Source: a virus
Taxonomy: Duplodnaviria; Heunggongvirae; Uroviricota; Caudoviricetes
Direction: 5' to 3' (one strand)
IMG/VR virus record: IMGVR_UViG_2547132270_000012
DNA: 4,453 bases
Shown here: positions 1 to 4,433 of the stretch, piece after piece
Numbering within the stretch: the stretch's first letter is position 1
Layout of the letters: every line of letters starts with the position of its first letter
Position numbers and translations under genes: made by a program
Notes under the pieces: generated by a model
The model's input: the letters and a program-made list of their open reading frames with translations, nothing else
Told to the model about the DNA's origin: nothing
The model's database searches: none

Positions 1-303
1 AAAGTTAGCCACAACGTCATTAAGGGACCAACCTTTCGCGGTTGTTCCTTCCTGCCCACGAATGACTCTCAACACATCACCGCTTACCGATACCAGGTGA
101 CAAATCTCAAATGCAGACTCTTTATTATCGGTAAGCGTAATTTTTGCATAGACGCGTTGCTCGTTCGATTTATTTTCAAAATCGGCAGAAAGCAATTTTG
201 CAAATTTAGCCCCTGTACCGGGCATTACCGGAATATCGGTCTGGATCGTGGTGATATCACCAGCCAGTGCTGAAACAACGTTATTGCCGAATCCAAGAAT
301 CAT
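1..303 (-). CDS. tail-fibre protein, N-terminal part (partial; gene continues beyond window start)
   Basis: ATG at 303-301 overlaps the TGA (302-300) of the upstream gene as ATGA. Hand translation of the minus strand gives 101 sense codons to the window edge (MILGFGNNVVSALAGDITTIQTDIPVMPGTGAKFAKLLSADFENKSNEQRVYAKITLTDNKESAFEICHLVSVSGDVLRVIRGQEGTTAKGWSLNDVVANF...). Not in the ORF track because it is truncated by the edge. Product is inferred from its position after J-like and gp48-like genes (Mu gp47-gp48-S order); no recognisable motif was checked. Confidence 0.55.
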   Translation of the reverse strand, partial: MILGFGNNVVSALAGDITTIQTDIPVMPGTGAKFAKLLSADFENKSNEQRVYAKITLTDNKESAFEICHLVSVSGDVLRVIRGQEGTTAKGWSLNDVVANF

Positions 304-926
304 TTTTGAATCACCGTTGTTGCATAGGAATAAATAAAAGGGAGTTTTACATATTTCTGGTCAATGGCATCTTTCAGAAAATAGCCTATACCATCGCCAT
401 ACTCTGGTATCTGAATAGAAAAAACACTGTCCGATACAGTCACACTCACATCAAAAGTATGCTGTAACGGCGGGTCTATTCCGTTTTTTCCATGAATAAA
501 CCGCGCCACACGGCGCTTTAACCAGTCAATGCAGAAATGCGAACCGTCAGCCTTATAAAAATTCCACGTTAATATTCGTTTAAAATAATCATCAGGAACA
601 TACGATGCCTGCCCCGGAACGTAATTCCGCATTGCTGCATACGGGATCGTATTGTATTCAATGGTATCGTATGCGCCGCGTGCAATAGCCTCCTCGGAAA
701 CCTGTAGTAAAGGCCTTTCAACGCCATAAATACCAAGCGCAATCCAGTCCAGCAACTGTCCGGTTATTGACTCCGATGTCCAGCATGGCAACGCCAGTTT
801 ATTGAGTGAATCGAGATATTCCTGAGCGATTTCATTGTATGCATCAAAGAACGCAACAATATTCGGATCATCTCTGTACTGTACAAATGGATAAGCAGGA
901 AGAATTTTCTCAGTCAGATATTGCAT
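300..926 (-). CDS. phage baseplate wedge/tail protein, Mu gp48-like (DUF2612-type)
   Basis: Track ORF 300-1034 trimmed to the ATG at 926 (MQYLTEKILPAYPFVQYRDDPNIV...), which has an AGG about 9 nt upstream. The 36 codons upstream of it lie inside the J-like gene in another frame and are R/W/H-rich and not protein-like. Stop is TGA at 302-300; 208 aa. Size and position between a J-like gene and a fibre gene match the Mu gp48 family; the family assignment is from memory, not a search. Confidence 0.65.
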   Translation of the reverse strand: MQYLTEKILPAYPFVQYRDDPNIVAFFDAYNEIAQEYLDSLNKLALPCWTSESITGQLLDWIALGIYGVERPLLQVSEEAIARGAYDTIEYNTIPYAAMRNYVPGQASYVPDDYFKRILTWNFYKADGSHFCIDWLKRRVARFIHGKNGIDPPLQHTFDVSVTVSDSVFSIQIPEYGDGIGYFLKDAIDQKYVKLPFIYSYATTVIQK

Positions 927-2136
927 ACTTGTTGACCTGAACCTGTGATGCCACCGTCGAAAAATAAGAATAGGTATCGCCATAAACCAGACTCGTATCT
1001 TTCGTAGGCGAGACAATATGGCCGTTAATACCAATGCTCACACTAATTGTTGAGATCAACGTCGCATCAACCAGCAGCCTGACAGAACTGGTAAAAATAT
1101 CCTGGATACGCAGAAGATTTATCGGGTGTCCGACTTCAATTGAATTGATGTAATCAGCAACGTTTTGCTGCACAGCCATAGCAATACCCGCCGGATCAAC
1201 ATAATCATCAGACACCGTGTTCCAGGTGATTAGCACCATGACATTTTGTGATGACGGGATAACGAAAGGCACCTGATAAACGTCCGGCGAAACGGTTATT
1301 GAAACCGTGCGTTTTTCCACTGCCGCACCGGACGGATTGCTAACATCGTTGGTCAGTTTCGAAATATCCGGTACAGATTTGTAAATCGCATAAGCCACAT
1401 CATACGGATCACCGCCACCAACAACCGCAACCCATTTCCCCAGCGACGACTGCCGGAAAGAAATCAGGTTTTCGCGCACACCGCTTACTGATTTGAGCAT
1501 CGCTTTAAAGCAATCCGGTGTTCCCTGCACACCAAACATGCCGGACTCCATGACTTCGGCGCGGTATGATGCCCACGTCTGCGCCTCCTGACCGGGCATA
1601 CCTGCGGTAAGGTTCGTGCATTTTACAGGCTGATCTTTGGGTACCGATGTAATGACCTGCGTTACGGTTCCTTCCGGTACAGCCCATGAGCCTGACGTTG
1701 TGGCCACACAGTAGACTGGCTCAGTCTGCCCGCTTTCCGGTACCACCGTATCGCGGGAAACTGCATACTGGTAGTTGCCGTCACCGACAACAAATCCTTT
1801 AGGGATACCAAACCCCGGCAACGCCTCAAACACCACGTATACCGCCGTATTTGTACTTAATCCCTTCTGTGCTCCATAAATGTTTCCGAGTTGCATCAGT
1901 AACGGAATATTCGCGCCGTATGGGCTTACGGAGTTAATAAGATCAACCCGCGCCTGGTCTATTAATGCCAGCGCCCCGACTGCCGTGCTGGCAAGGTCTG
2001 TAATAAGTCCCGCCGGAAGGTTGGCTGTATATCCAGGTACTTTTTCGGCAACTCTGGTGATAAGATTCGCGAGCAAATCATTGGGTGGCGTAGGCTGCGC
2101 ACCCGCACTGGTCATAGTAATTGGTATTTCTGACAT
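910..2136 (-). CDS. baseplate J-like protein (Mu gp47 / P2 gpJ family)
   Basis: Long minus-strand frame (track 910-2178, which begins at a TTG). The first ATG, at 2136 (MSEIPITMTSAG...), is preferred; ATG 2115 is also possible. Stop is TGA at 912-910; 408 aa from 2136. The protein has the Gly/Val/Thr-rich block typical of Baseplate_J proteins (...LGNIYGAQKGLSTNTAVYVVFEALPGFGIPKGFVVGDGNYQYAV...VYCVATTSGSWAVPEGTVTQVITSVP...). Overlaps the next gene by 17 nt. Confidence 0.75.
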   Translation of the reverse strand: MSEIPITMTSAGAQPTPPNDLLANLITRVAEKVPGYTANLPAGLITDLASTAVGALALIDQARVDLINSVSPYGANIPLLMQLGNIYGAQKGLSTNTAVYVVFEALPGFGIPKGFVVGDGNYQYAVSRDTVVPESGQTEPVYCVATTSGSWAVPEGTVTQVITSVPKDQPVKCTNLTAGMPGQEAQTWASYRAEVMESGMFGVQGTPDCFKAMLKSVSGVRENLISFRQSSLGKWVAVVGGGDPYDVAYAIYKSVPDISKLTNDVSNPSGAAVEKRTVSITVSPDVYQVPFVIPSSQNVMVLITWNTVSDDYVDPAGIAMAVQQNVADYINSIEVGHPINLLRIQDIFTSSVRLLVDATLISTISVSIGINGHIVSPTKDTSLVYGDTYSYFSTVASQVQVNKYAISD

Positions 2137-2163
2137 ATTTAAAACCCATATAGGAGATTTTCG

Positions 2164-2766
2164 ATGGACAGCATTCAACTGGAAAATATAAGGAAAGAAA
2201 AGCCAGACAACATTTTCATAATTTTAGGAATTATTCTTATTAACCTTTTCCTATTATCATTTCTCTACATTCCCGAAAAATATGATCGTGTAATAACATT
2301 CACCTTCGCACTTTCAATCATATTATTAATTTATCTTGATTCCAGATTGTTAACAAAATCTGGGTATGAACCAACTATTTCAAGAGCATGGGTGATACTG
2401 TTCGGCGCATTCTTTTTTGTTTTCTGGGTATGGAAACGCTACACATGGTTCGGAGATAAAACAAGGATTCTTTTCTGGGTATTATTGTTATCGACAGGCG
2501 TATCTTTTTATTATTCATATAATACAGAGAACAATAAAATGCTTGGTGAAACAGCCTGTGAATTATCAACTCAAATCATGAGCGAACAATACAACCGCCC
2601 CGATATAAAGTGTTCAAGGGTCGTTGAAATTAAGGAAATTGATAATAATTTCTATAAGGCCAGAGCCATATTTAACAACGGCACAACACAAAGCATTACT
2701 ATAGATGTTAGAAAAGAAAATGGACAAGAGATGGTGTATGTAAGCCTAAATCCTTTAGGTAATTGA
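2164..2766 (+). CDS. hypothetical polytopic membrane protein (4 predicted TM helices plus ~80-aa C-terminal globular domain); candidate superinfection-exclusion factor
   Basis: ATG at 2164 preceded by a strong SD, AGGAG (2153-2157), with a 6-nt spacer. 200 aa with four hydrophobic stretches (about residues 17-36, 43-58, 75-90, 102-119) and a polar C-terminal domain (...CELSTQIMSEQYNRPDIKCSRVVEIKEIDNNFYKARAIFNNGTTQSITIDVRKENGQEMVYVSL...). GC is about 33% by hand count over ten 60-nt lines, against about 55% in the adjacent J-like gene. Function is an inference. Confidence 0.75.
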   Translation: MDSIQLENIRKEKPDNIFIILGIILINLFLLSFLYIPEKYDRVITFTFALSIILLIYLDSRLLTKSGYEPTISRAWVILFGAFFFVFWVWKRYTWFGDKTRILFWVLLLSTGVSFYYSYNTENNKMLGETACELSTQIMSEQYNRPDIKCSRVVEIKEIDNNFYKARAIFNNGTTQSITIDVRKENGQEMVYVSLNPLGN

Positions 2767-2785
2767 TCCCCACCCCTTTACAATC

Positions 2786-2811
2786 GCGCCCAATAAAGTA
2801 TGATTGGGCGC
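2786..2811 (+). promoter_or_regulatory. perfect 9-bp stem hairpin (GCGCCCAAT / ATTGGGCGC, 8-nt loop) 20 nt after the membrane-gene stop
   Basis: Arms at 2786-2794 and 2803-2811 are exact reverse complements. No U-tract follows on either strand, so it is not a classic intrinsic terminator; it could be an RNA stability or processing element or a protein-binding palindrome. Confidence 0.4.
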
Positions 2812-2846
2812 ATGAGGCGTCGAAACCTCTTACAAGCGGTACACAA

Positions 2847-2872
2847 CCAACCCCGTTAGTGTTGGATTTTTT
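2847..2872 (+). terminator. weak intrinsic-terminator candidate (5-bp stem CCAAC/GTTGG, 9-nt loop, then A-TTTTTT)
   Basis: Stem at 2847-2851 / 2861-2865 followed by a T6 run at 2867-2872, about 80 nt downstream of the membrane-gene stop. The stem is short, so any termination is probably partial. Confidence 0.3.
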
Positions 2873-2886
2873 ATGCCTGCTATTTA

Positions 2887-2909
2887 GTGATGGCACGATG
2901 TGCGATCAC
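2887..2909. promoter_or_regulatory. 23-bp near-palindrome (GTGATGGCAC-GAT-GTGCGATCAC), candidate operator
   Basis: 10-bp arms match in inverted orientation at 9 of 10 positions with a 3-bp spacer. It lies 13 bp upstream of the structured RNA element and about 130 bp upstream of the antirepressor-like gene. No convincing sigma70 -35/-10 pair could be assigned by eye. Confidence 0.3.
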
Positions 2910-2921
2910 ATCCCCGATCAA

Positions 2922-3002
2922 TGTCGGGAGGGCGACGAATACAACACCCGAAAGGGGAATAAGTCCGCGGTACTTGTAGCCGTTTCGAACCTCCCGACAC
3001 CA
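2922..3002 (+). ncRNA. tRNA-acceptor-like structured RNA element, candidate C4-like antisense/cis-regulatory RNA controlling the downstream antirepressor gene
   Basis: Perfect 10-bp inverted repeat TGTCGGGAGG (2922-2931) / CCTCCCGACA (2990-2999) enclosing 58 nt, followed directly by ACCA, giving an acceptor-stem-plus-NCCA look. It contains an internal CCC-GAAA-GGG tetraloop hairpin (2947-2956). Segment 2973-2989 is reverse-complementary at 14 of 17 positions to 3015-3031, next to the SD of the following gene. There is no canonical D or T arm, so it is not a tRNA. Strand and exact ends are inferred. Confidence 0.45.
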
Positions 3003-3014
3003 CTTTGGTTCTTC

Positions 3015-3034
3015 TTCGAAAAAGATACAAGAGG
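3015..3034 (+). promoter_or_regulatory. predicted target/anti-SD pairing site overlapping the ribosome-binding site of the AntA-like gene
   Basis: TTCGAAAAAGATACAAG (3015-3031) pairs with 2973-2989 as 7 bp + 1 bp + 6 bp. The SD AGAGG is at 3030-3034 and the ATG at 3040. Confidence 0.4.
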
Positions 3035-3039
3035 TTACT

Positions 3040-3609
3040 ATGACCATCCAACTGATTCCCGTTTTCAGCGGAACTATCTCAAACGAAACTATCCTTCTAT
3101 GCAATGCACGTGATTTACACGATTTTCTTGAAGTAGGAAAAGTGTTTGCAGCCTGGATTAACGCTCGCATTGAAGAGTATGGATTCGAAGAAAATAAGGA
3201 TTTTGTAGTTTTTTCCAATTCTGGAAAAAATAGCGTAGGTCGTCGCCGCAAGGACTACCACCTAACCCTGGACACCGCCAAAGAGCTGGCGATGGTTGAG
3301 CGCAACGAAAAAGGCCGCCAGATCCGCCGATACTTTATCGAGTGCGAGAAAAAGCTGCGCGATGCAACTCCAGACCGCAACAAAATCATCCACGGTTCTC
3401 CTCGAACTGTTGTCATCCGGTTGGACGACACCGGAAATGTCATTTATACCGAAACCGTACCGACTGATGCCGTAGTCTGCACACCTGAAAGTTATAAACA
3501 GTGGATGGAAAAATGCGGCTGGCTGGTCATTCGCCAGGAAGAACTACGACATATCACGCTGGACAGACTTTTTGCCGGATATGCTCAAACCGGAACCTGC
3601 GTCCGGTAA
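3040..3609 (+). CDS. AntA/AntB-family phage antirepressor-like protein (N-terminal AntA domain plus uncharacterised ~75-aa C-terminal region)
   Basis: ATG at 3040 with SD AGAGG and a 5-nt spacer; stop TAA at 3607-3609; 189 aa. The N-terminal ~110 aa carry the motif pattern I recall for AntA-type antirepressors (LIPVFSG...NARDLHDFLEVGK.F..WI..RIEEYGF.EN.DF.......DYHLTLDTAKELAMVERNEKGRQIRRYFIECEKKL). The domain call is from memory, not a search. Confidence 0.75.
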   Translation: MTIQLIPVFSGTISNETILLCNARDLHDFLEVGKVFAAWINARIEEYGFEENKDFVVFSNSGKNSVGRRRKDYHLTLDTAKELAMVERNEKGRQIRRYFIECEKKLRDATPDRNKIIHGSPRTVVIRLDDTGNVIYTETVPTDAVVCTPESYKQWMEKCGWLVIRQEELRHITLDRLFAGYAQTGTCVR

Positions 3610-4287: not shown

Positions 4288-4315
4288 CCCTTGCCTTATT
4301 CAAGGTCAGAAACAG

Positions 4316-4347
4316 AAAGCCCCGACTGTTTGCCCAGTCGGGGCTTT
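4316..4347. terminator. strong intrinsic (rho-independent) terminator, probably bidirectional
   Basis: 13-bp perfect stem AAAGCCCCGACTG / CAGTCGGGGCTTT (GC-rich 10-bp core) with a 6-nt loop TTTGCC. U-rich tracts follow on both strands (plus CGCTTTAT; minus TTTCTGTTTCTG). Confidence 0.7.
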
Positions 4348-4433
4348 CGCTTTATGGATGTAATTTAAAGTGAGCCGGTATTAACCCGGATTTGGTTGCT
4401 TCGACGTGATCGTGCTGCCGCCGCTTTGAACGC

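Follow-up and report, generated by a model that had tools for sequence, protein, structure and literature searches.

A probable C4/CI-type antisense regulator of a phage antirepressor gene on the sRNA-Xcc1 scaffold

Introduction

Antirepressors decide whether a prophage stays silent. In this work we analyse a structured RNA of the Rfam family sRNA-Xcc1, which lies directly upstream of an antirepressor gene (ant) in a 4,453-nucleotide (nt) stretch of tailed-phage DNA (IMG/VR record IMGVR_UViG_2547132270_000012), hereafter the window. We argue that this RNA is probably a C4/CI-type antisense regulator of ant built on the sRNA-Xcc1 scaffold, acting as the RNA repressor of an immI-like cassette. 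The kind of system is well known from C4 of phages P1 and P7, CI of phage P4 and the IsrK/C4 pair of lambdoid prophages (PMC5320573, PMC3632133, PMC2864571).

The annotated order of elements in phage P1 is P1c4/P51b, a1, b1, c4 (77 nt), a2, b2 and icd-ant. When the Rfam C4 alignment is read together with the phage sequence, b2 (GUUAGUGA) is seen to complement the P3 loop of C4 (UCACUAAC), and a2 (UUGACAG) to complement CUGUCAA in J3/1, the junction between helix P3 and the 3′ strand of the closing helix. In P4, where CI RNA (seqB) is accompanied by seqA and seqC, and in N15, with its CB RNA, a processed RNA of ~80 nt also sits between complementary sites (PMC3632133, PMC4825925), the outcome in P4 being the premature transcription termination of replication genes. 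In the IsrK/STnc1160-orf45-anrP region of Salmonella Gifsy-1, a C4-type RNA and a gene of the antirepressor pathway are preceded by a short RNA that comprises a1/b1 and a terminator. Transcripts that read through this terminator are inactive as mRNA, and the short form, IsrK (RF01394), acts in trans to activate translation (PMC4825925). In the immI region of P22, the antisense sar RNA controls ant translation from the opposite strand, across the ant ribosome-binding site (RBS).

The sRNA-Xcc1 family was first found in an integron of Xanthomonas campestris. The X. campestris molecule is a discrete RNA of ~88 nt, as determined by Northern blot and end mapping (PMC2996969). In the portions of the literature accessible to us, the family figures either as a HrpG/HrpX-controlled, vesicle-borne or virulence trans-acting small RNA (PMC2996969, PMC12189769) or as an unexplained element found ahead of symE or ORF6N genes (bioRxiv 10.1101/2025.06.18.660453; 10.1101/2020.03.17.996009), as in APSE, where the element precedes an ORF6N gene (10.1101/2020.03.17.996009). 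Within those searchable portions we found no link between sRNA-Xcc1 and C4-type control of an adjacent gene.

An sRNA-Xcc1 RNA precedes the antirepressor gene

When the window was scanned with the complete Rfam 15 model set, one strong match emerged, to RF02221 (sRNA-Xcc1), at positions 2923-3006 of the plus strand, which carries all the cassette elements described below. The match spans model positions 1-87 of 87 and reaches 78.1 bits (gathering threshold 53; E = 9.7e-14, or 6.2e-15 in a 286-nt search), and our own covariance model, R1, scores the window RNA at 97 bits. The gene that follows (3040-3609) encodes a protein of 189 amino acids (aa) with an AntA/AntB antirepressor N-terminal domain (Pfam PF08346, E = 3.9e-27) and is annotated as "ant: antirepressor protein" in Escherichia phage Rac-SA53, in agreement with the AntA-like assignment made in a first-pass annotation, which had only the letters and open reading frames of this DNA to work with.

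That annotation had also proposed that the Rfam C4 covariance model be used as a check. No match to RF01695 (C4; threshold 45 bits), RF03163 (c4-a1b1) or RF01394 (isrK) appears at E ≤ 10, either in the whole window or in 2760-3045 alone, and therefore the RNA is not filed under RF01695. The C4 model itself does recognise phage P1, with 68.8 bits, and the copy of a Shiga-toxin (Stx) phage, with 74.3 bits. Conversely, R1 gives the C4 of phage P1 only 8.2 bits (E = 0.11); the two topologies are compatible, with no detectable sequence-plus-structure homology. By the curated tests, the RNA is a member of sRNA-Xcc1 and not of C4.

A repeat search of the window recovered the perfect 10-bp closing inverted repeat reported earlier, with arms at 2922-2931 (TGTCGGGAGG) and 2990-2999 (CCTCCCGACA) that are 100% complementary and have 58 nt between them. 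The accompanying statement that ACCA follows the stem directly fails for the 10-bp version, which ends at A2999 and is followed by CCAC, but is correct if the stem is taken as the 9 bp of 2923-2931/2990-2998, the helix P1 of the Rfam structure; A2999 is then a discriminator-like base followed by CCA at 3000-3002, and together they form the tail A-CCA (2999-3002). From the RF02221 match, model R1 and the covariation described below, we place the structured RNA at 2923-3002. Enclosed by helix P1 are helix P2 (2934-2936 plus 2938, paired with 2960 plus 2963-2965), with its internal loop AUACAACA at 2939-2946 and an apical CCC-GAAA-GGG hairpin at 2947-2956, and helix P3 (2967-2971/2979-2983) with a 7-nt loop. 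The tetraloop hairpin had already been noticed, as had a CCGCGG palindrome, which the repeat search finds at 2965-2970; the latter straddles the 3′ end of helix P2 and the 5′ strand of helix P3 and has no standing as a separate feature. The isolated RNA folds better than its shuffled versions (z = −3.16), none of 200 shuffles being as good. That these features go beyond chance is shown by the Rfam match and by the covariation of the helices and of loop and leader described below.

Helix covariation across homologues

Model R1 was built from 13 hand-checked sequences with 21 base pairs. Its search of 100 sources, made up of the window, nine regions of annotated phages and IMG/VR loci gathered by the motif ATACAANACCCNNNNGGGGAA, resulted in 100 matches. 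A previous alignment of 69 RNAs with MAFFT plus RNAalifold had missed helix P1, with the closing stems out of register, and was replaced by R1 and an alignment guided by the covariance model. Among 98 distinct homologues, standard pairs occupy 97.2% of the cells (73.0% in shuffles), two-sided changes occur at 19 of the 21 pairs, and the covariation score is 0.584 (0.152 in shuffles); none of 500 shuffles reaches any of these measures. Sliding the 3′ partner by 1-3 columns lowers pairing to 24-58% (slid controls ≤57.8%). Covariation extends to all 9 pairs of helix P1, the closing stem whose lack of covariation had been named beforehand as a sign against the proposal, and to all 5 pairs of helix P3. 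Moreover, since G·U pairs are frequent, the plus strand is the RNA strand.

Two specificity segments co-vary with the ant leader

A further feature of the first-pass annotation was a 14/17 complementarity of 2973-2989 to 3015-3031, near the ribosome-binding region of ant. This is borne out by the repeat search (17 nt, 82% complementary, 14 of 17 positions arranged as 6+1+7), and the two arms of the match turn out to be the P3 loop and the single-stranded J3/1 junction. The first segment, b′ (CUUGUA, 2973-2978), lies in the 7-nt P3 loop as the specificity loop, and its partner in the leader is b2 (TACAAG, 3026-3031), which shares its final 2-3 bases with the beginning of the Shine-Dalgarno AAGAGG (3029-3034) and ends 8 nt before the ant start codon. 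The second one, a′ (UUUCGAA, 2983-2989), lies in J3/1 between helix P3 and the 3′ strand of helix P1, and complements a2 (TTCGAAA, 3015-3021, also delimited by the repeat search). In the minimum free energy (MFE) fold, a2 is placed in the loop of a weak hairpin.

Across phages, the P3 loop varies and in each case complements a stretch next to, or partly within, the Shine-Dalgarno of the following gene, with loop/target pairs such as CUUGUA/TACAAG-AGG in the window, GAUUUUCCUUGU/ACAAGGAAAA in VPBES and CCUUAGAGU/ACUCUAAGG in Mannheimia. The J3/1 junction, in turn, complements a second site a few bases upstream of the loop target: UUUCGAA/TTCGAAA in the window, UUUCGAG/CTCGAAA (as RNA, CUCGAAA) in TL-2011c, UUCUGAA/TTCAGAA (UUCAGAA) in Stx2_EH1965 and GUUCUUAC/GUAAGAAC in Smp131 (DNA form GTAAGAAC). 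Twelve scaffolds with nearly identical 5′ parts bear eight different P3-loop sequences.

These correspondences were evaluated with 66 instances having distinct P3 loops, each compared with its own and with foreign leaders under 10,000 permutations. The longest Watson-Crick complement of b′ averaged 6.42 nt in the own leader vs 4.13 nt in foreign ones, that of a′ 6.20 vs 4.33 nt, and the RNAduplex energy was −18.3 vs −13.6 kcal/mol; for each of the three measures, 0 of 10,000 permutations did as well. In 56 of 63 loci, 6-13 nt separate the end of b2 from the start codon.

As a side observation, UUGUA of the b′ loop (2974-2978) also complements UACAA (2940-2944) of the family-conserved P2 internal loop, a pairing that the MFE fold makes use of. 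Judging from this predicted fold, the specificity loop could sequester itself, a behaviour that would be specific to phages with b′ CUUGUA.

A second pair of target sites, a promoter-like site and a terminator-like hairpin

An upstream copy of both targets was missed in the first-pass annotation: a1 (TCGAAAC, 2820-2826) complements GUUUCGA of a′ (2982-2988), and b1 (TACAAG, 2831-2836) complements the b′ loop CUUGUA, the repeat being TACAAGCGGT vs TACAAGAGGT. These sites are not only present but co-vary with the RNA. In 65 loci, with 250 nt upstream compared between own and foreign RNAs under 10,000 permutations, the match of b1 to b′ was 6.45 nt for own vs 4.77 nt for foreign RNAs, and that of a1 to a′ 6.40 vs 4.80 nt, 0 of 10,000 permutations reaching either value. 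In a typical homologue, a1 lies at −70 to −130 and b1 10-14 nt after it. The duplex predicted for the b1 site and the antisense region has −18.4 kcal/mol.

Upstream of a1, a promoter-like TTTACA-16 nt-TATGAT (2777-2804; 10/12 consensus matches) has a predicted start near 2811, shortly before a1. No other site of this kind occurs in 2700-3100, where 0.6 would be expected from shuffles, and this one occupies the position that P1c4/P51b have upstream of a1 in phage P1. A perfect 9-bp inverted repeat, GCGCCCAAT-N8-ATTGGGCGC (2786-2811), overlaps its −10 hexamer and is a candidate repressor operator, by analogy with phage P1, in which the C1 operator Oc4 lies over P2c4. Between a1/b1 and the structured RNA we read from the sequence a terminator-like hairpin, CCAAC-N9-GTTGG, with A and TTTTTT after it (2847-2872). 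Among 65 homologous loci, a T-run of at least 5 is found at −90 to −25 in 47, and a hairpin plus T-run in 33; the IsrK terminator occupies the equivalent position in locus L004 and in phage P1. No separate promoter between this hairpin and G2923 met the criteria of the scan.

Two further observations concern this leader. The a1-b1 spacer (2824-2831, AACCTCTT) is perfectly complementary to the Shine-Dalgarno region of ant (3029-3036, AAGAGGTT), with ~0.6 such 8-mers expected by chance. Between the terminator-like hairpin and the RNA, the precursor leader has another hairpin, GTGATGGCAC-GAT-GTGCGATCAC (2887-2909), whose arms vary in Rac-SA53 and the Stx phages and yet are largely complementary, G·U pairs included; a role in processing or stability, or as an operator, is conceivable.

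Comparison with described immunity RNAs

The likeness to the C4 system of the P1/P7 immI region (RF01695, RF03163) extends along the whole cassette: promoter, a1, b1, terminator-like hairpin, an RNA of ~80 nt, a2, b2 at the RBS and, last, the gene that leads to antirepressor expression. The RNAs themselves share a closing stem, a tetraloop hairpin, a hairpin with a U-rich specificity loop, J3/1 and a tail of purine plus CC (aCC), and a U precedes the first G in both. Since in phage P1 the P3 loop is established as b′ and J3/1 as a′, the co-varying segments of the window are found at the same places of the structure. In phage P1 and in the C4 copy of an Stx phage, as in many loci of the Xcc1 type, a2 is presented by a hairpin in the tail; in the C4-family copy of Stx2_EH1965, a2 is in the loop of this hairpin and b2 lies 10 nt before the ATG. 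The two RNAs differ in helix P1, of 9 bp in the window and ~17 bp in C4, and in helix P2, which is extended in the window and includes a conserved internal loop, AAUACAA, absent from C4. Moreover, the window cassette is found among the tail and baseplate genes of a Rac-SA53-like phage. With sRNA-Xcc1 (RF02221), on the other hand, the RNA has all three helices in common, as well as the AAUACAA loop, the hairpin CCC-GNRA-GGG and the tail aCC.

The upstream half of the cassette recalls Gifsy-1, with a1/b1 plus a terminator ahead of a C4-type RNA; the isrK match of Stx2_EH1965 coincides exactly with a1b1 plus terminator, beside the C4 match, and in phage P1 this model likewise covers a1/b1 plus terminator. 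In contrast with IsrK, a1/b1 of the window are not predicted to lie in two IsrK hairpins, and the terminator is weak. The arrangement of an RNA between complementary sites is shared with P4 and N15, but the P4 outcome, transcription termination of replication genes, differs from a block at an antirepressor RBS. Finally, P22 sar also targets ant translation, from the opposite strand, whereas the window regulator is on the same strand, upstream of the gene and partly complementary to it.

Proposed mechanism

The cassette would be read in the order promoter, a1-b1, leaky terminator, structured RNA, a2-b2/Shine-Dalgarno and ant. Transcripts that pass the terminator would carry the three-helix RNA of ~80 nt, which RNase P probably excises at G2923, by analogy with the C4 of phage P1. 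Features consistent with RNase P are a U at −1, present in 50 of 80 distinct RNAs, a G at +1, a G-C-rich closing stem and the purine plus CC after it, which belongs to the Rfam consensus; in our own RNA set this last trait was imposed by the parser and constitutes no independent evidence. Together with the mapped 88-nt RNA of Xanthomonas, these features suggest by analogy a processed, discrete species. The fold would leave b′ (P3 loop) and a′ (J3/1) unpaired and free to pair with b2 and a2 in the ant leader, so that ribosome binding would be blocked and the antirepressor kept off in the lysogen. The upstream sites a1/b1, on a short terminated transcript or in the precursor, may compete for a′/b′ and provide an anti-antisense input comparable to IsrK in Gifsy-1. 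We infer processing by RNase P, action in trans, repression rather than activation, and this role of a1/b1. Trans action is favoured by near-identical scaffolds with differing loops and by the stand-alone or promoter-separated copies described below, all as read from sequence comparisons.

Distribution and genomic setting

The RNA and the start of ant are 100% identical to Rac-SA53, and window positions 1-2142 are ~96% like the baseplate and tail genes of this phage, with other cargo at 2143-2812. Because both flanks match Rac-SA53 at ~96%, the segment 2143-2812 looks like swapped cargo (a moron) beside the immunity cassette. It contains a hydrophobic open reading frame (ORF) of 200 aa (2164-2766) with no Pfam match, and this ORF and the promoter region remained unmatched in the phage collection. 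At the other end of the window, a strong 13-bp hairpin AAAGCCCCGACTG-loop-CAGTCGGGGCTTT (4312-4347) with T/A-rich flanks on both strands has the look of a bidirectional terminator; it gives only sub-threshold matches to the sar (4290-4351), ohsC, rimP and SSRC10 models.

Related copies with 79-92% identity occur upstream of antirepressor genes in Stx1 and Stx2 phages and in 267 of 5,426 complete E. coli genomes. More distant ones are found in phages of Aggregatibacter, Vibrio, Mannheimia, Acinetobacter, Stenotrophomonas and Moraxella, each of them 30-50 nt upstream of a gene annotated as Ant, KilA-N, anti-repressor or hypothetical. The genes following homologous RNAs (69 proteins) are of antirepressor-type families, with the domains Bro-N (16), P22_AR_C (10), ORF6N (9), KilA-N (8), Phage_pRha (7), AntA (6) and P22_AR_N (5).

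Some Stx phages have two sRNA-Xcc1 copies, and Stx2_EH1965 has c4-a1b1/isrK/C4 in tandem with an sRNA-Xcc1 copy. Serial cassettes of this kind, either two of the sRNA-Xcc1 type or one IsrK/C4-type plus one sRNA-Xcc1-type, are seen in loci L002 (2571-2660 and 3110-3195), L003 (970-1058 and 1509-1594) and L004 (756-951 and 1509-1592), each cassette with its own Ant-like gene and different specificity loops.

A subgroup of loci (L032 1546-1620, L034 2516-2590, L035, L046, L049, L063, L064, L085 and L090) shows a promoter-like TTGAC-N17-TATTCT after the RNA, flanked by CTAGCC/GGCTAG palindromes. In this subgroup the loop target CCGCAT lies beyond the promoter-like site, 7-8 nt before the ATG of an ORF of 66-85 aa, which places the target on a separate transcript. 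In locus L076, the copy at 7027-7109 is followed directly by a terminator-like hairpin and has no downstream ORF; a second copy, 160 nt further on, precedes an antirepressor-type gene. From its sequence context, the first is a possible stand-alone copy acting in trans.

Weighing the evidence and the alternatives

The first-pass annotation had ventured a C4-like, possibly divergent regulator of the adjacent antirepressor gene, and this reading is supported by the positions of a′/b′, which are as in phage P1, by the covariation of both the leader and the a1/b1 sites, and by that of the closing stem. Several points weigh against it. Besides the lack of C4, c4-a1b1 and isrK matches given above, the case is a comparative one. 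The candidate promoter is a single and weak consensus match, and the terminator-like hairpin is also weak, with 5 bp and a 9-nt loop, owing to which it was not called by the terminator scan. The duplexes of the window are short (6 and 7 bp), and, unlike in C4, the block by b2 would fall on the RBS of ant itself, an icd-like leader ORF and translational coupling being absent. As for the covariation, alignment A5 was fitted to the model, and the homologue set was anchored on the P2-loop motif, so that it represents the motif-bearing part of the family only and the conservation of this motif is by construction. Regarding the folds, the MFE structure of the isolated RNA departs from that of the family in pairing UACAA (2940-2944) with UUGUA (2974-2978), and the MFE fold of 2900-3060 has none of the a′/b′-a2/b2 duplexes; we judged single-sequence folding misleading and excluded it as evidence for or against the mechanism.

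Among the alternatives, one is a purely cis-acting leader, with an RNA that is never released and whose a′/b′ segments pair either with a2/b2, closing the RBS, or with a1/b1, opening it, as a translational attenuator. All three partners are on one predicted transcript within 220 nt, the isrK-orf45 mRNA of Gifsy-1 does switch between alternative intramolecular structures (PMC4825925), and covariation with both target sites fits cis and trans action alike. However, with helix P1 formed, the a′/b′-a2/b2 pairing in cis would be a pseudoknot, which is absent from the MFE fold, and the stand-alone copy of L076 and the promoter-separated L032 group imply action in trans. The hypervariable loops on identical scaffolds suggest selection on cross-reactivity between phages, and the C4 of phage P1 is itself known to work in trans (PMC8546580). 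We therefore regard an exclusively cis-acting leader as unlikely.

A control of the P4 CI type, where pairing with a1/b1 and a2/b2 on the nascent transcript leads to premature termination, either at the hairpin that follows b1 or by way of Rho once translation is blocked, appears to us just as improbable; direct RBS occlusion would in that case cease to be the main effect. The order seqA-CI-seqC is the same, IsrK/C4 have been described as structural homologues of P4 seqA/CI (PMC3632133, PMC4825925), and a hairpin plus T-run follows b1 in the window and many homologues. Nevertheless, the window terminator is weak, and the placement of b2 so close to the start codon in most loci, overlapping the Shine-Dalgarno, is needed by a translational block and not by termination control. 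Both mechanisms are in any case compatible, since an RBS block and P4-like termination are not mutually exclusive.

Much less credible is a general trans-acting small RNA directed at host mRNAs, for which the complementarity to its neighbour would be incidental. The literature treats sRNA-Xcc1 in this way in Xanthomonas and Xylella (PMC2996969), with many host and plant targets predicted (PMC12189769). The covariation with two sites of the own locus, seen in 65-66 loci and reached by 0 of 10,000 permutations, cannot come from incidental matches, and in unrelated phages the RNA keeps its place 30-50 nt upstream of antirepressor-class genes. This argues against host targeting as the primary role and allows for further host targets.

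Lastly, the acceptor-like stem followed by ACCA might suggest a tRNA, whole or in remnant form, or the relic of an attachment site. This reading is refuted: ARAGORN, used as a negative control, found 0 tRNA or tmRNA genes in the window, as expected, and the interior consists of two hairpins and no cloverleaf.

Implications for the sRNA-Xcc1 family

For an RNA that pipelines annotate as "sRNA-Xcc1" without a mechanism, the antisense control of ant proposed here offers a testable function with target sites defined at single-base level, and it suggests that the published host and plant target predictions be revisited. The covarying loop/target pairs also make up a natural table of orthogonal specificities, which could be reused as a programmable translational repressor. 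Close relatives of the cassette reside in Shiga-toxin phages, sometimes two per phage, and therefore the RNA probably contributes to the control of induction and to inter-phage immunity.

The whole Rfam family sRNA-Xcc1 probably needs to be re-interpreted. With less assurance than for the window locus itself, we lean towards the view that all its members, including the integron, Xylella and APSE copies, form a second structural lineage of C4/CI-type immunity RNAs. In such a lineage, a conserved RNase P-type scaffold would carry two fast-evolving specificity segments matched to flanking decoys (a1/b1) and targets (a2/b2), gate a neighbouring antirepressor-class or toxin-like gene, and set apart heteroimmunity groups of prophages that reside together, for example the Stx phages.

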